Source of the DNA: a virus
Taxonomy: Duplodnaviria; Caudoviricetes
Virus record (IMG/VR): IMGVR_UViG_3300013122_000001
Span: 1-47,765 of that record
Strand: one strand, 5' to 3'
DNA length: 47,765 nt
Shown here: piece by piece, positions 333 to 47,765 of the stretch
Layout of the letters: each line of letters starts with the position of its first letter
Position numbering within the stretch: the first letter of the stretch is position 1
Program-made: the position numbers and the translations under genes
The notes under the pieces: model-generated
The model's database searches: none
What the model was told of the DNA's origin: nothing
What the model saw: the letters and a program-made list of their open reading frames with translations, nothing else

Positions 333-605
333 AAAAAGGTTGGAGTAACAAGGTTTACGCCCGTCACTTCCAACCACAATTTTACCACATGGAAAGTCAC
401 AAAATTATTTTGGATAACGTGGTTATTTGCAAACTTAAAACAAAAACCCACAAACATAGCGAATTATCGTGGAAAAATTAATTAAAATAAATATACAAAA
501 ATAATTAACATTAGTCAGATGTTTGTGAACGCTTGTCCATAATTCCTTTCACAACAAGGGTTATGGACGTTTTTAATTTACCGTTACCACATATTTTTAC
601 CACTT
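333..605. other. Probable attP region
   Basis: Non-coding gap downstream of integrase with arm-type repeats TTTACCACAT (381-390), GTTACCACAT (583-592), TTTACCACTT (596-605), CAACCACAAT (371-380), an AT-rich centre and two hairpins. Confidence 0.7.
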
Positions 606-1652
606 TTTAAGAATTTCTTCAATTTTGTCCGATGATTCTTTCAGTCTATCGTCATGTACTCTTGAATATACATTTAGAGTCATGCTAATATCAGAGTGAC
701 CCACTCGTTTTGCGACAATGTGTACTGGAACGCCAGCATCCAATAACATTGTAATGTGGGTGGCTCTCATATCGTGGAAGTCGATATCAGGTAATTCGGT
801 GTTAGCGACAAGTCGATTAAAGTCATTGCGAATAGTGTTGGGGATGATGAACTGATTCTTGCCAGAGAACAGCCAGTCATCCTTTTTGTATTCCTTCCAG
901 ATTTCCAGTTTTTCTTCTAATGTTTTATTGAGTGGTATTTCTCGAATAGATCCGTCTGTTTTCGGTGTCTGGATAATCCATCTACCTTTAACTTGAGCTG
1001 CCGTTCTTTCGATGAATATAGAACCTTCTCGAATATCTTCCCATCTAAGCGCACATATCTCTCCTATACGCATACCACCATATAATGCAAGGTAATAAGC
1101 TAACCAGTAAAGGGAACGCTCCTCGCAGAATTCTAAGAACTCTTGTGCTTCTTCTACCTTCCAAACCACTTTATTCTTTTTCTCTTTCTTCACTTTAATA
1201 TTAGAAACAGGATTCTTCTCAACTAATTCAAGGTCTACCGCTTTATTAAACAAGGCTAGTAAATAACCCCTTACATTTACCACGCTACTTGTTGCCATTC
1301 CCTTAGATTTCAACCATTGTATAAAATTCTCCACATCCATCGGTTTTACCTTCTCCACTTTCTTTTTTGCGAAATAAGGGAGGATGTGCGCTCTTACAAT
1401 GTAATCTCTTTGGGATAGAGTGGACTCCTTCGCTTCCGCCGAACGGTTCCAGATGTCATATAGACCTTCAAACGTTAAAGAGGTAGCCTGTTTCTTGCCA
1501 TATTCCTTCTTTAACCTAGCAGCTTCTTCTTGCGCTTCTGTCTTTTTCGCAAAGCCACTTCTAGTTAGTTGTTTCCTCTTTCCGGTGATTGGATCGCGAC
1601 CAACATCAATCGTAAATCTCCAACCACTCTTTATCTTCTGAAAATAGGCCAT
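597..1652 (-). CDS. int: Tyrosine integrase with N-terminal arm-binding domain
   Basis: GGMRIGEICAL, PKT, FHDMRATH, VGHSDISMTLNVY catalytic motifs; start placed at ATG 1652 after GAAAGGAAGTG. Confidence 0.95.
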   Translation of the reverse strand: MAYFQKIKSGWRFTIDVGRDPITGKRKQLTRSGFAKKTEAQEEAARLKKEYGKKQATSLTFEGLYDIWNRSAEAKESTLSQRDYIVRAHILPYFAKKKVEKVKPMDVENFIQWLKSKGMATSSVVNVRGYLLALFNKAVDLELVEKNPVSNIKVKKEKKNKVVWKVEEAQEFLEFCEERSLYWLAYYLALYGGMRIGEICALRWEDIREGSIFIERTAAQVKGRWIIQTPKTDGSIREIPLNKTLEEKLEIWKEYKKDDWLFSGKNQFIIPNTIRNDFNRLVANTELPDIDFHDMRATHITMLLDAGVPVHIVAKRVGHSDISMTLNVYSRVHDDRLKESSDKIEEILKKW

Positions 1653-1681
1653 AAATTCACTTCCTTTCCCGAAAAGTATAA

Positions 1682-1696
1682 CTGAATATGCGTCGC
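1682..1696. promoter_or_regulatory. Putative CI/Cro operator upstream of int
   Basis: Reverse complement GCGACGCATATTCAG matches the operator family at 2480-2773. Confidence 0.55.
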
Positions 1697-1722
1697 ACAT
1701 AAAGTGGATATTTTTTCTCCAA

Positions 1723-18402: not shown

Positions 18403-19302
18403 GTGAGATACAAATGTTTCTGTGAAACCAATCCATATGATTTAACAAAAGAAGAAATAAGGTTCATGTTGCGAAAATCAAACAGATATCAACCAGAAGA
18501 ATTTGTGAAACATTACAATATAGACGGTGATACCTTTAAAAAAATAATTAAGATAAAAGGTCTTGTTCTTACAAGGGTCGAGAGATCCATGCTTCGTGAG
18601 ATGAGTAAAGCTGATGAAGAGGGTTTTACTTCTACGAAGAATGGTATGCCATACGACCCGTTAAACGTTGATGAAATACCAAAAGTGTTAATATGCGCTC
18701 TTTATGGAGTGGATTTTGAAATAGTAAATGGGAAAAGGCATTACGACGTTGAACAATTCGAAAGAGCGAAAGAAGATGTGGGAAACAAGATTGAAAAGTA
18801 CGAGAGAATCATGAAAGGTCCGGAAAAAACACAGGGATACTCCAAGTTAAGCAGATTAGACTTAATCGCCATGCGGATATTCAGAGGATATAACAGGCAG
18901 AAATTATCGAAAGAAACTGCATTAACCATCAACATGATAAAGGAATACGAAAGTAAAGGTTCTAAAATCCCACTTTATGTTGAGAACACATATAAAGAAG
19001 TTCTGGGTATTAAGAACAGACACATCATTCAACTAAGAGAAATTATGAGTGGGCAGAGTAAAAGTATAACTGATGACAGAGAAATTCCAAAGATCATAAA
19101 ACTTAAAGTTTGGAAAAGAGATAAAGGAAAGTGCGTGAAATGTGCTGCCAGAGATAAACTACATTACCATCACATCAAAAGGTTTGCAGAAGGTGGTCAG
19201 CACACTGAAGAAAATTTGATGTTGTTGTGCGCAGGATGTCATGCAGAGGAACATAAGGGCGAAAAAGCCTATTACATGTTAAAAAAGATGGCGGAGGGAT
19301 GA
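18403..19302 (+). CDS. HTH-HNH endonuclease
   Basis: XRE-like HTH (RIFRGYNRQKLSKETAL..YE) plus RDKGKCVKC..HHI..GG..NL..LCAGCH. Confidence 0.8.
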   Translation: MRYKCFCETNPYDLTKEEIRFMLRKSNRYQPEEFVKHYNIDGDTFKKIIKIKGLVLTRVERSMLREMSKADEEGFTSTKNGMPYDPLNVDEIPKVLICALYGVDFEIVNGKRHYDVEQFERAKEDVGNKIEKYERIMKGPEKTQGYSKLSRLDLIAMRIFRGYNRQKLSKETALTINMIKEYESKGSKIPLYVENTYKEVLGIKNRHIIQLREIMSGQSKSITDDREIPKIIKLKVWKRDKGKCVKCAARDKLHYHHIKRFAEGGQHTEENLMLLCAGCHAEEHKGEKAYYMLKKMAEG

Positions 19303-35611: not shown

Positions 35612-37549
35612 GTGAATGTGATGGTAATAAAGTTAAAAACGACTGACTCATGGGACACGTTCCGATATACACTCCCTTCAGATACTGGGGCTCCCATTGA
35701 CTTAACTGGCGCAAGTGTTTCATTCGTTATGGCGAAATCGAACAAATTAGCACCAGTCATTAACAAGCCCGCAGAAATTATAGATGCAGCAATCGGAAAG
35801 GTTCAATATAAATTTGAAGGGTCAGATACACTCTTGCATGGTGATTTTCTAGCGGAATTTCATGTTGTATTTCCAAATGAGGATAGAAAAACTTTTCCTA
35901 CCTCGACATATTTGAAAGTACAAATAGCGCCGAACCTAGACATCTCCTTACCTGGATCCATCGAAGAAAACATCATCATCCAAGTATCGGAGATTGAGCA
36001 ATTTAAAACGGAAATTACTGCTGAGGTTGAAAAGGTTAATAATTTCCAATCCCAAATTGACCAGATGACGATTGAGGGTGATTCGAGCGTTGAAGCAGCA
36101 CAGGCGCGGGTGAAAGCGGATGGTAGTTCGTTCACTACTTTGCGTGATAGGCTGAATAATGCTGATGAACATTTGGCACAAACTGCGACGGACTTAGATC
36201 AGAGAGGATTGAATGTAAAATTATTCGGAGCAGTAGGTGACGGTTTTAGTCACCCTTTGAGTAATTACTATTCCACCTTAACTGAAGCTCGAATAATTTA
36301 CCCAAAGGCAACTGCGTTAACAGATGAAATAGACACTTGTGCAATACAGAAAGCAATTGATAGTGGTAGAAAAGTTTATATACCCGAAGGAACATATCTA
36401 ATATCAAACACGATAAATATTTCTCGTGAGGGTGTATATATAAGTGGAGCTGGTTTAAAAAGCACCAGGCTAACATATAAAGGAACTCAGTTAGACTTTT
36501 CAATCTTTTATTTGTCTTCCTCCTCTTTTGCAACAATAGAGAAACTAAATACTCACAACCCTGCAAATAAAGGAATTGGAATCAGAGTTAAAAGCGGCAC
36601 AGGTAACTTAGTAACCAGAGATTTTGGAGCCTATTTCTTAGACGTAGGAATTTACTATGAAGAAAACACATTTCTGCATTATATTGAGAATTGTCATTTT
36701 TACGGTTGTAGCTTTGGAGTTAAATCGGTTTGGAATTTCAACGCAATTACTTTTATTCGCACATCTTTTGGGTCGTGCGACGTTGGATTGGAAGTCGGTG
36801 AAGGAAGAACTGTTTCAATAGAAAGTTGTCATTTTGAAGAGAACAGAATAGGATTGAAGAAAATTAACGGAGGTAATATATCCGTTTCTAAATCTTACTT
36901 TGAAGCTAATTCTGACAACTCTATACAGATCGTTTGGGGAACTGAAAGTCCTGAAATAGTTACCATTGATTCTTGTGATTTTTATCGAACGACTTCCACA
37001 GGTGCAGAAATTAGTTATCATTTAGCTGAGAACAGGTTTGTTAATATTCAAAACTGTTTGTTTAAAGCTGGCGTGCCTGCATATGCTGTAACACAATATC
37101 AATACACTTTAGCTAAATTCACATGGTTAAACAATACATTGGTTAATAGTGAAATCATGCAAGATAAACCATCTCTTGAAAGATTGTTAAAAAATACAGA
37201 TCAAAGATCAATTTATTCTAATCATAATGGGATATATAAACTAATAACCGAGGACAATATTAATTTAAAAAATTATATTGCAAAAGGTGAAACTTGTTTA
37301 AGATTTGTCCTAAGTAGCACAAGTAAAGTGATTACTCTCCCTAGAATATCATCATTGGTCGATGCTCCAGCCGTCTCATTTTTCTTTCAGGGTGCTACGG
37401 ATACAGTTACCGTATCATTCGCAAATGAGGATGCGAACACATGGATGAATGGGGTAAGGACATTAACAACAGCAGACAATAATAAAGAATTTAAAATTGT
37501 ATGTTTACGAGCAACTGCTGCACAAACAGAATATAGACTTCTTTCATAA
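35612..37549 (+). CDS. Tail spike 1: BppU-like N-terminus + beta-helix (pectate-lyase-like) receptor-binding/depolymerase domain
   Basis: IDLTGASVSF..GKVQY..AEFHV..TFP; NVKLFGAVGDG..IQKAID..VYIPEGTY. Confidence 0.8.
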   Translation: MNVMVIKLKTTDSWDTFRYTLPSDTGAPIDLTGASVSFVMAKSNKLAPVINKPAEIIDAAIGKVQYKFEGSDTLLHGDFLAEFHVVFPNEDRKTFPTSTYLKVQIAPNLDISLPGSIEENIIIQVSEIEQFKTEITAEVEKVNNFQSQIDQMTIEGDSSVEAAQARVKADGSSFTTLRDRLNNADEHLAQTATDLDQRGLNVKLFGAVGDGFSHPLSNYYSTLTEARIIYPKATALTDEIDTCAIQKAIDSGRKVYIPEGTYLISNTINISREGVYISGAGLKSTRLTYKGTQLDFSIFYLSSSSFATIEKLNTHNPANKGIGIRVKSGTGNLVTRDFGAYFLDVGIYYEENTFLHYIENCHFYGCSFGVKSVWNFNAITFIRTSFGSCDVGLEVGEGRTVSIESCHFEENRIGLKKINGGNISVSKSYFEANSDNSIQIVWGTESPEIVTIDSCDFYRTTSTGAEISYHLAENRFVNIQNCLFKAGVPAYAVTQYQYTLAKFTWLNNTLVNSEIMQDKPSLERLLKNTDQRSIYSNHNGIYKLITEDNINLKNYIAKGETCLRFVLSSTSKVITLPRISSLVDAPAVSFFFQGATDTVTVSFANEDANTWMNGVRTLTTADNNKEFKIVCLRATAAQTEYRLLS

Positions 37550-37597
37550 TGAACAGTTGGACACTACTGGGTAGTAACACATTTTAATAAAACACAA

Positions 37598-37627
37598 AGA
37601 AGCTCACGGATTTCCGTGGGCTTTTTA
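37598..37627 (+). terminator. Intrinsic terminator
   Basis: AAGCTCACGG/CCGTGGGCTT stem plus T run. Confidence 0.75.
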
Positions 37628-37646: not shown

Positions 37647-39611
37647 ATGCTACCACACGCTATAGGCGGACAGGTGAACTCACAAGATTTAAACGACAAC
37701 TTTTCTTATTTGGAAAGCGAGAAAATAGGAAAACAAGAGTTGATGTATATCAACGCTAAAGATACTGGTGCTTTAGGAGATAGTGTGACAGATGACACAT
37801 TATCATTACAGGCAATCTTCGATTCTATTCAAGATGGCGATGAAGTCATTATCCCGAATGGTGTCTATATCGTCAACAAGAATACAAATCTTACTGATTT
37901 TCCGAATAATGACCAACCATGCTTATTACTTAGAGGTAAGAAAGACATTCGGATTATCGCTCACGGAGCCAAATTCAAAACGAATACCCACGCACAAGGT
38001 ATTTTAGAGCTTCAACTATGTGAAAACGTGGTTGTAGAAGGGTTGAAGTTGGAAGGGCGCGGAAGTTTCCCTGCACTTGACGGAACTACAGGAAGAGGCG
38101 AAAAAGGAACACCGGATGCGGGATATGCCACTCAACAACAATGGGGCTTCTATAAAAATAATGCTGCTAATTTAGGTCATGGTTCCTTCGGCGGTGGATA
38201 TATCGGTAACATTGCAGTTGGCGCTTTAGTTCATCGAGGATGTAAAAACATTCGGTTCATCGGATGCGAAGCGAAAGGATTCAACTATACAGGGTTTGGG
38301 GTCGGTCATAATGGCGATTACAACCCGAATTTCTTGAATTATGCAGATTCAGCAAATGTAATTTTCGAGAAATGTATTGCAACAGATAATTACAGTTCGA
38401 ACTTTCACTTCCTAGCAGTAGATGGCGGAAAAATGATTAATTGTGTATCGGAACGTTCGGGGCATCCAAATGCTTTATATACTCATGCTGCTGTAGATCC
38501 GGGATACGGAGTTACATTGATAGGCTCTGATTGGTCTAACTCTAAAAACGTGGAAATCATGAATTCTACATTTAAAGATGACAAGCGAAAAGGAATAGAC
38601 GTACATGGTGGAGATGGAGTCAGAATCGAAGGAAATACAGTTTCCAATGCGATAATGTCAGGGATATTCGCCAAATCCACTTCTGTTAATATGCCAGCAA
38701 AAAACATCACGATTGAAGGAAACACCATCATCAACTCTTCGTACCATAGCGCTAGCTTTGGTGCTATTTTAGTTGGTGGATTAAACGGAGTAGACTACTC
38801 TAAAGCAAATGCTTATTTCAATGGTAAAGTATCCAAAAATAAAATCATCAATTGTGGACGTGGAATAATTTGCGCGCCATTTGATACATTGGAAATATCG
38901 GACAATACCATTGACGGAGTAGATAACCGGGCAACCGTAGCTTTCGAGGGAATCCGAGCAGGGACTCTGGCCTTTGCCGAACGAAATTACAACGGAATAG
39001 TTAGAGGGAATGTCGTGAATAGCAGAGGCCACGCTTTAATGACTCAAGGAATTACAGCTAGGTATCTTGAAGAAGGAAACGTAAACGATAATATCATCAT
39101 CTTGGAAAATGATGCAGTAGGAACAGGGCTATACTTGGTAGCTTGTGGAGATGTCAATGCAGTTAATAATTACGCAAAACTTCTGAATGCTGGTACTGCA
39201 ATCGCCGACACGCAAACAAGAGGAAGAGTATCGAATACTGGATTAGGCGGAGCGCCTTCCGTAAAGCAGACCACGGGTCAAGTTATCCACTTTTTCATTA
39301 CTTGTAATGGGGGGGACGGGACGAAAACTTTTTACTCGGGCGCTAATTTAGTGGAGTCTGTTGTATCAAATAGTAATGGATTAGCTATCAATTTACAGGG
39401 TGTCTCTCCGGGTGTGAGACCTTACGCAAGTGTTTCTATCGCATCCCCGGACGGAATCAAAAATGCGAGTGATGTTCTTCACTCTTACTTTTACAATCGT
39501 TCAGCTTCCTCAAGCCAAGTTGTGATAGGTATCAAGTCGGGTCCAAGTTCGGGACATAGCCCTTTTAACACGCTAACAACAGGTTCATTAGAAATAAGAA
39601 TTGAATTGTAG
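37647..39611 (+). CDS. Tail spike 2, right-handed beta-helix
   Basis: INAKDTGALGDSVTDDT..IIPNGVY; repeated I.GNT/I.DN beta-helix rungs. Confidence 0.75.
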   Translation: MLPHAIGGQVNSQDLNDNFSYLESEKIGKQELMYINAKDTGALGDSVTDDTLSLQAIFDSIQDGDEVIIPNGVYIVNKNTNLTDFPNNDQPCLLLRGKKDIRIIAHGAKFKTNTHAQGILELQLCENVVVEGLKLEGRGSFPALDGTTGRGEKGTPDAGYATQQQWGFYKNNAANLGHGSFGGGYIGNIAVGALVHRGCKNIRFIGCEAKGFNYTGFGVGHNGDYNPNFLNYADSANVIFEKCIATDNYSSNFHFLAVDGGKMINCVSERSGHPNALYTHAAVDPGYGVTLIGSDWSNSKNVEIMNSTFKDDKRKGIDVHGGDGVRIEGNTVSNAIMSGIFAKSTSVNMPAKNITIEGNTIINSSYHSASFGAILVGGLNGVDYSKANAYFNGKVSKNKIINCGRGIICAPFDTLEISDNTIDGVDNRATVAFEGIRAGTLAFAERNYNGIVRGNVVNSRGHALMTQGITARYLEEGNVNDNIIILENDAVGTGLYLVACGDVNAVNNYAKLLNAGTAIADTQTRGRVSNTGLGGAPSVKQTTGQVIHFFITCNGGDGTKTFYSGANLVESVVSNSNGLAINLQGVSPGVRPYASVSIASPDGIKNASDVLHSYFYNRSASSSQVVIGIKSGPSSGHSPFNTLTTGSLEIRIEL

Positions 39612-39619
39612 GTGACGCA

Positions 39620-41503
39620 ATGCTTACCATTAAGAATAGAGAGTTAAAGCAGATAGCCGAATTAGAAAACGCTTTTAGTGTAGGATATGAGTTGTTATTT
39701 AATGATATCTCAAGTATGACTTTCTCATTGCCATTGGATGACCCTAAAAATAAAGAGTGCGTACCCTTCAATTTTGTGGAGTTAAAAGACGGAGAAAGAT
39801 ACATTGGAATGTTCCGTATTGTTCCAACGTTGACCGTAAAAGATGAATCTACGAATGTAATCCAATATAAGGCATGGCACGTCATTTCCACTCTACTGGA
39901 TGACGTGCTTTTTCGTTTCCACCAAACAACCAACTGGACCACTAGACAAAACATTGAATACATCTTAGCGCAGCAGACAACGGTTCACTGGGTTTTAAAG
40001 GACTGTGCGTTCACCAGATATTTTCATTATGGCTACGAAAACGAAAACGGACTCTTAGGACCTTTATTCTCCATCTCTAAGCCGTTTGACCAAGAGTATG
40101 AATGGAAGTATAACACAGAGGTTTATCCCTTTGAATTAAGCCTTGTGGAACCTTCGCACACTCCTACTTGCGAGATAAGAGAAGCGCACAATCAAATTGG
40201 CATAGAGAAGGAAGAGCCGAATGAAATTATCAACCGGATCTATGCGCTTGGCTACGGGGAAGGTGTGAATCAACTCGGCATCGAGGAAGTGAATAACGGT
40301 CTACCCTATGTAGAAGATGCTGCATCCATCGCAAAATACGGATTGCATAGTTATGTATGGATTGACCGGAGATTCCAAGATGCTGCAAGTTTGAAAGCAA
40401 ATGCGGAGAGCTTGCTGAAAAAGTGGGCGAATCCCATTCCGATGTACAGAGTGAATGCCGGGGACGTATCTTATTTCACGAATGAAGATATCCATAAATT
40501 AATATGTGGACGCGTGGCCCGTACTCATGACAGTGACTTAGGAACATTCGATTTACGAATTATGCGCGAACGGAAAAATGATATGTTCGGTTCTCCAGGT
40601 GATGTGAAAATAGAGGTTGGTAGTTTAACGGATGATATCGCCACTCTTCAGTATGATTTGGATAAGAAGATGCGGATTAATGAAGCGTATAGTCAAGGTG
40701 CGACCAATCTATTAGCATATTCTTATAATGATAATGCTGATAGTGAAAATCCAGCAGAAATCTTAATCTTCCTTCCTGAAGAAATGGTTAATATCAATGA
40801 ACTTACTCTATGGTTTGAGACAGACTATTTCAGGGGATATTCAAGGGGGATAGAGGGTGGGGGTTCCTTTGTATCAACTGAAACCTCTTCAGCCGGAGGG
40901 GCGCGTTCTAGCACGGTGCAATCGACCGCTGGAGGTGGAGCTAGGTCTAGTACGGTTCAAACAAGCGCTGGCGGTGGTGGAGCATCTACTACTAGTGGAC
41001 AGGCAAATGGTTATCCAGCCACAATTATTCCATATATGACGGGTATGGCTATACCGGATGGAAGTAGTCATATTCACGGGGTAACGATTGATACGGCAGA
41101 TTTTGACCACTGGCATACAATTAATTTAGATCCGCATACTCATGGTTTTACAATACCAGCTACACCAGAACATACGCATGATTTTACAATACCAGCGATA
41201 CCAGAACATACACATGAAACCACTATTGAAATACCGGAACATACTCACCCAATCGAACATGGTATTTTTCAACTGGACTCTCTTCCTACAAATGTTCAAA
41301 TTAGAGTAGACGGGAATTTAGTTCCCTTTAGCGGGACTAGCACGGATGGATTGAACCTTGTTCCGTATCTTAGTAAAGATGATGGAGGTAAAGTGACAAG
41401 GGGTAAACATATGATTTCATTAACGCCAAACGAAAGGGGGAGAATAAATGCTCAAGTAAACACACAATTTTTCATACAATCTCGCGGCAAATATAATTTG
41501 TAA
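39620..41503 (+). CDS. Tail tip protein (Tal/prophage endopeptidase-tail family) with His-x-His repeats
   Basis: LENAF..FSLP..NRIYALGYGEGVNQL; six HxH motifs near the C-terminus. Confidence 0.8.
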   Translation: MLTIKNRELKQIAELENAFSVGYELLFNDISSMTFSLPLDDPKNKECVPFNFVELKDGERYIGMFRIVPTLTVKDESTNVIQYKAWHVISTLLDDVLFRFHQTTNWTTRQNIEYILAQQTTVHWVLKDCAFTRYFHYGYENENGLLGPLFSISKPFDQEYEWKYNTEVYPFELSLVEPSHTPTCEIREAHNQIGIEKEEPNEIINRIYALGYGEGVNQLGIEEVNNGLPYVEDAASIAKYGLHSYVWIDRRFQDAASLKANAESLLKKWANPIPMYRVNAGDVSYFTNEDIHKLICGRVARTHDSDLGTFDLRIMRERKNDMFGSPGDVKIEVGSLTDDIATLQYDLDKKMRINEAYSQGATNLLAYSYNDNADSENPAEILIFLPEEMVNINELTLWFETDYFRGYSRGIEGGGSFVSTETSSAGGARSSTVQSTAGGGARSSTVQTSAGGGGASTTSGQANGYPATIIPYMTGMAIPDGSSHIHGVTIDTADFDHWHTINLDPHTHGFTIPATPEHTHDFTIPAIPEHTHETTIEIPEHTHPIEHGIFQLDSLPTNVQIRVDGNLVPFSGTSTDGLNLVPYLSKDDGGKVTRGKHMISLTPNERGRINAQVNTQFFIQSRGKYNL

Positions 41504-41751: not shown

Positions 41752-41866
41752 ATTATGGGAATGTGGTAAAATAATAATTAAGGAACTAGCCCTGTACAGG
41801 CGAAAAGAAGGCACCCACCTTCCTGTTCCCCTATATTTTTATGGGGTAACTGTGGGAGGTTACAAT

Positions 41867-42775
41867 ATGGATAAAGTATGTTCCAAGTGCGGTATTTCAA
41901 AACCATTAACTTCGGAATTTTTCCACCGTGGCAAAGACACAAAAGAAGGTTTTAAGTCCGCGTGTAAAGATTGTAGAGCCAAAGAAAAGAAAACTTGGCG
42001 GGATGAAAATAAAGATCGAATTAACGAACAATCGAGAGAGTATTATAAAAATAACAAAGAAGTAATAGGTGAGAAGAGTCGCGAGAGATACTTTGCTAAT
42101 CATGAAGAAAATCGTATGAAATATAAAAAGTATTATGCTGAAAACAAAGAAAAAGAAAGAGAAAGATTGAGAAATTTTTATAACGTACCTGAAAATAGAA
42201 AGAAAAAACTCGCTTATTCTAAAAGGTATGCAGAAGAAAACAGAGAAAAAGTTAACTATATGCAGAGTGAATGGCGTAAGAAGAACAAAACTAAATACCT
42301 TCAATATTTAAAAGAGTACAGACTAAGAGATCATGTAAGGGCATATCGAAAAAAATACAAACGCAGACCAGATGTTTTAGAGAAAATAAAAAAATATAAA
42401 CAATCAGAACAAGGTCGTCAGGTTAATAAACGTTCTAAACACAAAAGAAGATCTATAGAACGGGAAGTTTTAGCAACACTAACTCTTAGTCAATGGAATA
42501 AATGTTTGGAACACTTCAATAAGAAATGTGCATATTGTGGACAAGGTCCAAACGAAATAGTATTAACTCAAGAGCACTTTGTTCCTGTAATAAAAGGCGG
42601 GGAATATACCGTTAAAAATATAATTCCTGCTTGCGGAAGCTGTAATTTCAGCAAGAGTGATAGAGATTTCTTCGACTGGTTTAAAAATCAGAAATTCTAC
42701 TCTATCCGCAGGCAAAAGAAAATATTGAAATACCTAGACATCAAAGATAACCAACAACAAATAGCATTATTTTAA
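41867..42775 (+). CDS. HNH endonuclease with Zn finger and helical Y/K repeats
   Basis: CSKC..CKDC; CAYCG..QEHFVP..GG..NIIPACGSCNFSK. Confidence 0.85.
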   Translation: MDKVCSKCGISKPLTSEFFHRGKDTKEGFKSACKDCRAKEKKTWRDENKDRINEQSREYYKNNKEVIGEKSRERYFANHEENRMKYKKYYAENKEKERERLRNFYNVPENRKKKLAYSKRYAEENREKVNYMQSEWRKKNKTKYLQYLKEYRLRDHVRAYRKKYKRRPDVLEKIKKYKQSEQGRQVNKRSKHKRRSIEREVLATLTLSQWNKCLEHFNKKCAYCGQGPNEIVLTQEHFVPVIKGGEYTVKNIIPACGSCNFSKSDRDFFDWFKNQKFYSIRRQKKILKYLDIKDNQQQIALF

Positions 42776-44088: not shown

Positions 44089-44274
44089 CTAATATTTTAC
44101 CCACGACTTTTCAAATGCCCTCAACTTATCATTCCCCGTTACCCACTTGCCAGCTAATTCATGAACGCCCTCTACATAATACAATCCATCGTTATCATGT
44201 TGCTTCAGTGTACCGACTAATTTTGTTTCCGTGTTTTGCACTCTATCCCCAGCTTTAAGACTCTTTTTGTCCAT
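44089..44274 (-). CDS. Hypothetical protein
   Basis: Overlaps the upstream HNH-HTH gene; followed by a minus-strand terminator (44062-44089). Confidence 0.55.
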   Translation of the reverse strand: MDKKSLKAGDRVQNTETKLVGTLKQHDNDGLYYVEGVHELAGKWVTGNDKLRAFEKSWVKY

Positions 44275-44830
44275 ACAGATCATCCACTTTAACCCCTAAT
44301 AAGATAGCAAGAGTGAAGGCTTTATCCATAGGGATGTAATGATAATTATTACACCAACTTGAAAGCGTTTGTGATGTGACATTTATTTTTTGTGCTATAT
44401 AGTTGCTTTTCAAACCTCGGTCATTTAACAGGCTTCTTAAATTGCAAACAAGCGGATTTCTTTTTTCGTTTTCTTCCCGTGTTTCTTTATATTTTCTATT
44501 TGTTGATTCCGAAGCGTTGCTGGCTTTGGTAACTTGCAAAAGATTACCTTTTTGATTATTTAATTTGTCATTATCTATATGGTGGATAGTCATTTCATCA
44601 TCTAATAAATTAAGGCCATAATAATAAGCAAATAATAATCTGTGTTGCATTACAAAAACGTTTTTACCGTTAATTTTTACAGATATTCTTTTATAACCAT
44701 CCGACGTAAGAATATTACACGGTTTTTCAGTTCCGTTTTTAAAAGTTCTCCAAATATTCCCCTTATCATCAACTCTTAATGTTCCTTCGTTTATCAATTC
44801 TATTAGTTTTGAAATAGCCAACCTTTGCAT
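44255..44830 (-). CDS. HNH_3 endonuclease fused to XRE HTH
   Basis: GY..HRL..IHHIDNDKLNN..NL; C-terminal HTH. Confidence 0.8.
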   Translation of the reverse strand: MQRLAISKLIELINEGTLRVDDKGNIWRTFKNGTEKPCNILTSDGYKRISVKINGKNVFVMQHRLLFAYYYGLNLLDDEMTIHHIDNDKLNNQKGNLLQVTKASNASESTNRKYKETREENEKRNPLVCNLRSLLNDRGLKSNYIAQKINVTSQTLSSWCNNYHYIPMDKAFTLAILLGVKVDDLYGQKES

Positions 44831-46122: not shown

Positions 46123-46252
46123 GAATGTTCCCTTTCTTCTCTAATACATTGTCTATACTTGTTCGGTACGTTCGTTAATTTTGGGATTATCCTACTTTTT
46201 TATCTGTTTTTTTGTTGATATTTTAAAAAATATCATTTTTGGGGGTGCTGGC

Positions 46253-47506
46253 TTGCTCGAAATTTTACTCATTCCGGCTGCAGTCGGAGCAATTGGAATA
46301 CTTGGCCCGAAGTTTGGAAAGATGTCCGATAGGAAGAAAGTGGAGAAGATATTCAAAAATGTAGGAATTGGGATAAAGGATAAAGTGATGAAAGATGGTC
46401 ATGAGGTGACAAAGTGGACGTATCCGCGATTCCACAAGAAAGAAGTCATAAAGGATGGCGAGGAACAAGTAGGGACCAGGTACATCTATTCCATGCCACT
46501 TGGTAGCAGCTCGAAAATACTGGATAAAGTAAAGGAAGCACATATCTTTGTAGAGGGCTTAAATAAGCCTGTAGACGTGGAATATGACAAGGTGATAGGT
46601 AAGGTTCACATAGATGTATTTGACCGCCATACACCGGAGATGGTGGAGTTAAAAAGCATCCCCGATACAAAAGGGTGGAAGGTGCCGATAGGACAGAATT
46701 ACAAGGAAACCATCTGGCACGATTTTGAAAAAATACCGCATCAAACTGTGGCCGGGACCACCCGTTATGGGAAAACAGTATTCATGAAATCGTCCATGAC
46801 CTATTTAATCGAGCAACATCCGAAAGATGTAGAGTTTATCATCATCGACTTAAAAGGTGGTTTGGAGTTTCACGCTTATAGAGGGTTACAACAGGTTCAA
46901 TATGTAGCATCTAATGCAAGTGATGCTTATAAAATTTTGAAATCAGTAAAAGAAAATATGCGGAAATTAGAAATACTTTTTAAACAACGGAACTATACAA
47001 ATGTTGTAGATTCGCCTATTAAAAGAAGAACATTCATCTTAGTGGATGAAGCTGCACAATTAGCTTCTGAGCCGTGGATGAAACCGGAAGTTAAAAAGGT
47101 TCTTGGTGAATGTCAATCTATATTAAGCGAAGTTGCTAGGATTGGGGGTGCTTTAGGGTATCGCCTTATATACGGCACACAGTACCCCACCGCCGATACT
47201 TTGCCACGCCAAATAAAACAGAATGCAGATGCAAAGATAAGTTTCCGTCTACCAACCGGATATGCTTCAGCAGTAGCGATAGATGATTATGGGGCCGAAG
47301 AACTGCCAAGTGGAAAGCCCGGACGGGGATTATTCAAAACGCACGAATTAAGAGAGTTTCAAGCTCCTTACATCAGTGATGAAGAAATGAGGGAAAGGCT
47401 CATGAAATATGAGATTGTGAAAATATTGGATGTGAACCCAGATGATGTTGTCGAATATGCAGAAGAAAATGATACGAGAGGAACAGATCTTGTTAAGTTT
47501 AGATAA
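46253..47506 (+). CDS. FtsK/SpoIIIE-family ATPase with N-terminal membrane anchor
   Basis: Walker A AGTTRYGKT, IIDLKGG, Walker B FILVDEAAQ, TQYP; TTG start after GGGGGTG. Confidence 0.9.
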   Translation: MLEILLIPAAVGAIGILGPKFGKMSDRKKVEKIFKNVGIGIKDKVMKDGHEVTKWTYPRFHKKEVIKDGEEQVGTRYIYSMPLGSSSKILDKVKEAHIFVEGLNKPVDVEYDKVIGKVHIDVFDRHTPEMVELKSIPDTKGWKVPIGQNYKETIWHDFEKIPHQTVAGTTRYGKTVFMKSSMTYLIEQHPKDVEFIIIDLKGGLEFHAYRGLQQVQYVASNASDAYKILKSVKENMRKLEILFKQRNYTNVVDSPIKRRTFILVDEAAQLASEPWMKPEVKKVLGECQSILSEVARIGGALGYRLIYGTQYPTADTLPRQIKQNADAKISFRLPTGYASAVAIDDYGAEELPSGKPGRGLFKTHELREFQAPYISDEEMRERLMKYEIVKILDVNPDDVVEYAEENDTRGTDLVKFR

Positions 47507-47765
47507 GATGGAGTTTGCTACACGTAGTCAATTACAGGAGCTTCACGGACTATCTAGCAAGCGAAATGCTTCAAGAGTCTTACACAACATGAAGGAATAT
47601 TTACACGTAAGGAGGATGGAAGAGAATATCTACTGGCTTAATTCATTAGGTAGGAGGGTAATCGGCAGCAAGAAGGGAGAACCGAAATTCACTTTACAGG
47701 TCCAGCACACCATCATGAGAAATGACATCTTTATTTACTATAATCAACCGGATAACTGGGAGGCA
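47442..47765 (+). CDS. Replication-relaxation (Replic_Relax) family protein, 5' part
   Basis: REEQILLSLDKMEFATRSQLQELH..RNASRVL..HTIMRND; runs in frame into positions 21-332. Confidence 0.8.
   Translation, partial: MMLSNMQKKMIREEQILLSLDKMEFATRSQLQELHGLSSKRNASRVLHNMKEYLHVRRMEENIYWLNSLGRRVIGSKKGEPKFTLQVQHTIMRNDIFIYYNQPDNWEA

Follow-up and report, generated by a model that had tools for sequence, protein, structure and literature searches.

The window analysed here (IMGVR_UViG_3300013122_000001, 47,765 nt) is the complete circular genome of a temperate siphophage, with a 20-nt terminal repeat and a last open reading frame that continues at the start of the record, and its nearest annotated relative is Bacillus phage vB_BhaS-171, with 70% identity over part of the tail region. 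Tail spike 1, the gene under study, lies on the plus strand at 35612..37549 and codes for 645 aa from a GTG, with ATG starts just downstream. Its N-terminal part shows a weak match to the Pfam family BppU_N (aa 24-89, E 8e-5, just under the cut-off), and is followed by a conserved linker (GDSSVEAAQAR...TLxxRL; 36047..36166, plus strand) common to tail proteins with unrelated C-termini, by a first 22-nt site, A (36167..36188, plus strand), and by a low-GC beta-helix receptor-binding domain, the cassette (36177..37558, plus strand), for which no close relative was found and which carries no passenger gene. A second 22-nt site, B (37551..37572, plus strand), is non-coding and begins 1 nt after the stop codon. 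The backbone 3' of site B contains a hairpin with a T run, seen in the sequence and terminator-like on the plus strand (37601..37626), and then tail spike 2 (37647..39611, plus strand), which is outside the cassette, is conserved with vB_BhaS-171 and has no flanking sites. In KU160496, the annotation gives the corresponding hairpin as a terminator; the terminator scan lists that of the window only in its minus-strand reading, and a promoter scan of the window performed no better than shuffle level.

Several other features of the genome have been recorded. Three genes carry HNH domains (18403-19302, 41852-42775 and 44255-44830), one of them fused to a Cro-type HTH; the HNH gene located between the tail and lysis genes has a GC content of 32.6%, as low as that of the cassette. 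A gene of the FtsK/SpoIIIE family is followed by an open reading frame across the circular junction (46181-47765 and 1-332), an arrangement which we take to resemble the replication-relaxation pair of Bacillus prophages. Finally, the C-terminus of the tail endopeptidase (40860-41260) contains short repeated Gly/Ser/His-rich units, with a 36-nt direct repeat at 41135-41206.

Regarding the tip of tail spike 1, a match to PF12708 (aa 241-295) marks the pectate-lyase-like start of the beta-helix, and the C-terminal part matches tail spike gp49 (PDB 4RU4; E 3.5e-19, 85 residues, query 15-99) as well as pectate-lyase-like Atlas clusters at 0.96. Judged from these domain matches, the tip may act as a depolymerase and influence host range. 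No relatives of the cassette were found in viral contigs, and one match in a protein search (P0063) covers only a short N-terminal stretch common to many spikes. The enclosed DNA has a GC content of 34.5% (GC3 0.25), compared with 41.4% in the N-terminal part, 45.6% in the capsid gene and 42.2% in the tape measure gene, so that the impression of an earlier note on this DNA, that the enclosed 1.4 kb is AT-richer than the latter two genes, is borne out by measurement. Among relatives, cassettes are lower in GC than the DNA upstream at 36 of 42 loci.

Site A reads GAACATTT-GGCACA-AACTGCGA and lies in frame, as EHLAQTA, at the junction between the BppU/linker part and the beta-helix, the crossover falling probably at or just after the GG at 36175-36176. 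Site B, a weak copy, reads GAACAGTT-GGACAC-TACTGGGT, with its GG at 37559-37560. By their sequence, both belong to one 22-nt family with imperfect inverted arms around a centre starting with GG, and the copies in the window keep only 4 of 8 arm pairs. The two sites are in direct orientation, one inside the spike gene and the other directly 3' of its end; no inverted site was found near the spike gene in the window, nor any invertase, DGR or spare-tip library in this genome. The earlier note had paired two 23-mers, at 36165-36187 and 37549-37571, which do exist with 16 of 23 positions identical, the second overlapping the last base of the TAA stop codon, and the limits that it gave to the module (36167-37572) coincide with those derived here for the 22-nt sites. 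The identity put forward there as evidence is nevertheless at chance level, since 6.5% of window positions match so well within 2 kb. Site A matches another position of the window, 8862, better (17/23), and the A/B pair is not among the 20 largest families listed by a generic repeat search. The significance of the pair derives from relatives, and not from the 16/23 identity.

Cross-trained matrices were used to avoid circularity, and held-out tests were preferred over de novo motif search. Using a matrix built from in-frame junctions of other phages only, site B of the window scores 10.6 bits, a value reached by 1 of 359 control stop regions. Under a matrix built only from the post-stop DNA of other phages, site A ranks first in the window, both strands included, with 20.5 bits (next position, 16.5), and site B scores 13.3 bits, below several chance sites. 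Moreover, the right half of site B can be aligned to the vB_BhaS-171 site that comes last, the point from which the two backbones are again alike.

A search with the N-terminal 190 aa gave 62 proteins, including the window's own, most of which match only the linker of about 55 aa; after this common linker, the C-termini include GDSL esterases, deacetylases, M14 peptidases, beta-helices, phosphodiester glycosidases and other domains. Three collection scans provided 191 linker matches, 145 of them distinct, and the junction was located by a protein-only pattern in 70 of 144 (window excluded). The junction Leu is encoded by TTG in 65 of these 70, as against 60/131 for the linker Leu and 400/2302 in the tips, and the junction Gln by CAG in 47/54, as against 174/896 in the tips; such a bias among synonymous codons implies that the DNA, and not merely the peptide, is constrained. 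Furthermore, Ser replaces the junction Leu at two loci, yet TYGG is kept. The consensus is GCGCAGTT-GGCGGA-AACTGCGA for 70 A sites and TCACAGTA-GGAACA-TACTGCGC for 52 B sites, where GGA was required in the scan (its A being present in 94% of the unconstrained set). Taken over these 70 A and 52 B sites, the consensus has the layout of a tyrosine-recombinase core site, with inverted arms and a centre of 6-8 bp.

With respect to the 3' side, a de novo motif search, run without a shuffled null on 66 nt at the stop of 106 genes, found a junction-like motif in 32. The junction-only matrix reached at least 10 bits after 12 of 106 spike stops versus 1 of 359 other stops; over all loci, its score after stops showed no significant shift (Mann-Whitney p 0.068), because about half of the linker family lacks the sites. 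Site B follows the stop at 27/63 loci with A versus 1/47 without A, in a partly circular comparison between related loci, and the position just after the stop is a frequent one for B in relatives. When passengers are allowed for, B is found with at least 11 bits within 1.7 kb of the stop at 36 of 46 loci with A, versus 3/46 on the reverse strand and 2/39 upstream, the matrix being partly trained on the same loci. Reverse-strand (inverted) sites of at least 14 bits were found neither at 17 loci picked by recombinase nor at the 46 loci with A, and there were no headless spare tips among the relative loci examined. Fisher p values, calculated without a tree-based correction, overstate the independence of the loci.

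Two or three B sites occur in tandem at L003, L186, L194, L198 and L210, and none such in the window. In the cultured phage vB_BhaS-171 (L003:5175-5601), a stop codon immediately precedes each of three tandem B-type sites, between which lie two small ORFs; this cassette array in miniature would be usable as a test system. The same small gene, with a weak match to DUF6290, follows a B site at differing array positions (L194:4970-5176, L198:6191-6364, L210:6819-7025), and it is also found near a truncated linker in a decayed locus (L083:8672-8845). The 23 genes scanned after the spike include five matches to Wzy_C (three above the cut-off), three hexapeptide acetyltransferases, two GDSL genes and one EpsG, the latter at L139, where no B was found. 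Genes of the Wzy-like or acetyltransferase type lie between the spike stop and site B in L053:7953-9116, L164:8026-9249, L185:1899-3065, L017 and L196; and in L123, L190 and L207. Such passengers might couple receptor conversion to the tip, or they might have been captured from polysaccharide loci of the host.

The limits of sequence identity fall at the sites. Within 60 pairs sharing the linker, identity extends through TTGGC and drops at the next base, while in 10 pairs that have the downstream backbone in common it sets in again at about the GG of B. Nine loci on one backbone have unrelated tips (at most 42% local protein identity), with B present in eight; between the prophage records L203 and L204, identity is 95% as far as A and 98.5% beginning at the GG of B, with unrelated DNA in between, and L199 and L211 are 98.7% identical from A onward. 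After dropping 42 duplicate loci of 211, in-register sites hold 61 of 382 alignment ends (starts 25/188, ends 36/194) versus 2 of 2020 in shifted controls, bearing in mind that 21 of the 25 starts, which are resumptions at B, come from one 7-member clade and that the ends are favoured by the picking of loci on the linker. The window itself agrees with vB_BhaS-171 in the BppU part and again from B on, the tips being a beta-helix and a GDSL domain, respectively. Homologues are thus not colinear through the module: identity ends at A and resumes at B within a few bases, with unrelated tips between them, so the two sites do bound a module which has been replaced among related phages. This is the part of the proposed site-specific import that holds; switching within the present population was not seen, contigs showing one allele. 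Among the linker loci, no two different backbones were found to carry an identical cassette delimited by sites on both sides.

A 330-aa XerD-like recombinase is encoded downstream of the spike at L002, L011, L026, L082 and L139. A search with the recombinase alone returned 20 loci, three of which repeated earlier ones, and the remaining 17 provided a held-out test: A was present upstream in 16/17, compared with 0/17 on the reverse strand, and B lay no more than 800 nt upstream in 11/17, compared with 0/17 on the reverse strand and 1/17 downstream. The recombinase and the sites occur together in tail modules of both siphoviruses and myoviruses, whose N-termini are unrelated. Three further genomic loci gave one with A and B, one with B at a contig edge and one with weak scores only; in a Terrisporobacter phage whose homologue has 37% identity, the stop is immediately followed by a perfect 7-bp inverted repeat, and no site was found in a Clostridium phage with a recombinase homologue. 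The enzyme is armless and keeps R-K-HxxR-H-Y (R185, K209, H276, R279, H302 and Y311, invariant in 9/9 recombinases), and its nearest solved structure is XerD (1A0P). The pairing of enzyme and sites is guilt by association, and it is likely that this armless XerD-like recombinase, found beside the sites in other phages, does the swapping. A second, distant type of tyrosine recombinase (about 25% identity) occupies the same position downstream of the spike in L064, L072, L110 and L178; its site scores are weak and it was left out of the counted support. Host Xer proteins (32-38% identity) were also considered as the enzyme and discarded, no link to the sites being seen.

In the present genome, the only tyrosine recombinase detected is the prophage integrase, which has an arm-binding domain (597..1700, minus strand) and scores 46 bits with the profile of the recombinase family, versus 300-609 for true members; by this profile search, the adjacent recombinase of the cassette family is absent from the circular genome. 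The same holds for many relatives: no recombinase was found nearby in 17 of 19 linker-picked loci having both sites and 2.6 kb or more of sequence past B, in five whole viral records (one complete), or in the five host genomes reached from linker loci, where only Xer-level matches (32-38%) appeared. The enzyme is uncommon in hosts, being found in 0/49 and 3/301 genomes. At L122 (5723-5883) both sites are present, and after B come a terminator-like run and no more than the final ~40 codons of the recombinase, a 3' remnant that suggests loss by deletion. Since the enzyme is absent here, swapping either would need it in trans or predates its loss. The earlier note had proposed an exchange without invertase or DGR, neither of which was found; it cannot be called enzyme-free, given that, in relatives, sites of this family are closely tied to an armless tyrosine recombinase of the tail module. 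No alternative alleles or excision joints were detected in the contig set of the one run containing this DNA, probably its source, contigs being known to drop rare variants.

On the basis of what is observed (the sites, the breakpoints at GG, the linkage between site family and recombinase, and the absence of the enzyme here), the tip half of tail spike 1 is best regarded as a cassette between two 22-nt sites, and we think it fairly probable that it is exchanged through the action of an armless XerD-like recombinase, either borrowed from a co-resident phage or since lost. The lack of inverted sites, spare tips and alternative alleles points to exchange between genomes rather than to a shufflon. 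Between two phage genomes in one cell, each site would recombine with its own kind (A x A', B x B'); one crossover would yield a cointegrate and a second, at the other site, would leave the cassette swapped. The reading frame would be kept because every incoming cassette begins in the same Leu-Ala phase, and the different centres, GGC in A and GGA in B, would disfavour A x B deletion. The centre beyond GG varies with the cassette and travels with it, so that the exchange would have to tolerate mismatches, about 2 bp of identity being enough. A precedent is IntDOT (PMC2817482), a tyrosine recombinase for which identity over just 1-2 bp where the first cleavage takes place is sufficient.

These crossovers between like sites are the route which we favour as the probable one; an integron-style alternative, in which A x B recombination releases the cassette as a circle and the emptied site takes up a foreign one, is rather unlikely. 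Its final products would be the same as those of the double crossover, and it accounts for the small genes separated by tandem B sites in vB_BhaS-171 (three sites), L194, L198, L210 and L186, although such arrays fit either crossover or circle insertion. It is also consistent with the in-frame sites with a B-type GGA centre in L155 and L108, and with the site directly followed by a stop in the decayed locus L083. However, after insertion into filled loci the former tips should remain, headless, behind a GGC site, and no such tips were found; one pattern scan of viral contigs revealed no clear empty A-left/B-right allele, its sole match being an ordinary B site; no excision joint was seen; and an empty spike locus would probably be non-infectious.

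Less likely still is a reading in which the sites offer short stretches of homology to phage annealing proteins or to host recombination and persist through selection for the domain boundary, with the Xer-like gene having some other job. Motifs flanking coliphage tailspike domains, patches of 20-95 nt, have been proposed as hotspots of homologous recombination (PMC10408124, accessible part), the linker before A offers about 100 nt of homology, and most site-bearing loci have no recombinase. Nevertheless, homology is absent from the cassette side of B, identity returning at its GG, palindromic sites stand beside the recombinase in unrelated sipho- and myovirus N-termini, even with the 37%-identical clostridial homologue, and the synonymous codon bias would be left unexplained. 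As for a mere coincidence in this phage of a Leu-Ala hinge with an AT-rich stop region, this reading is already largely refuted and very improbable: the chance level of the 16/23 identity and the several chance sites that outscore B would fit it, but A is the top site of the genome under a matrix of non-coding DNA from other phages, and B, 1 nt after the stop, lies at a position frequent in relatives and aligns with the last vB_BhaS-171 site.

Exchange of receptor-binding domains between phages is commonly put down to homologous or illegitimate recombination. Here, the breakpoints, the defined site of 22 nt and the candidate enzyme open a dedicated mechanism to direct testing; if true, this would be recombinase-mediated cassette exchange as it occurs in nature, using two types of site and tolerating mismatched centres. 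The site marks the cassette limits even in enzyme-less phages, and can be used to mine for cell-surface-degrading enzymes and the polysaccharide-modifying genes linked to them. What this case adds is a complete genome free of the recombinase, the fact that such orphans are the majority in the linker family, and the polysaccharide-modifying passengers. More speculatively, and with less than even confidence, it may be suggested that Bacillota phages of different tail types share one receptor-binding-domain plug, a rare phage recombinase serving as a public good by which whole cassettes are swapped among genomes residing in one cell, the sites-only majority included. As many cassettes would bring both a tip and a polysaccharide-modifying gene (Wzy-like, acetyltransferase), attack and receptor conversion might then change in one step.

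A literature search, covering mainly main texts outside subscription journals, found no description of such a cassette system. As in integrons (IntI, attI, attC), crossover would take place at a very short invariant core, and the gene-site-gene-site runs after the spike in some relatives recall integron arrays. However, the recombinase scores 89-127 bits against the IntI model TIGR02249, below its cut-off of 265 and with the match split in two, the sites are 22-nt sequences with a centre of 6-8 nt rather than attC hairpins, and the first of them lies inside a gene and makes a fusion protein. The coliphage motifs differ from the present system in its palindromic site, sharp GG breakpoint and recombinase linkage, the accessible part of PMC10408124 naming no recombinase. 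IntDOT is an arm-bearing transposon integrase, likened to the present enzyme by mechanism only. The closest known system is the Rin shufflon of Bifidobacterium prophages, for which the accessible part of PMC6109161 describes an armless XerD-like tyrosine recombinase beside a receptor-binding protein gene, with one site inside this gene and another directly after its 3' end in direct orientation, a constant N-terminus and a variable C-terminus. The likeness fails on the reservoir and the inverted sites: according to the same part of that report, Rin has inverted sites and stored alternative C-termini that flip within one genome, whereas the phage described here has only direct palindromic 22-nt sites of two centre types and one expressed tip, with neither reservoir nor recombinase in its genome.
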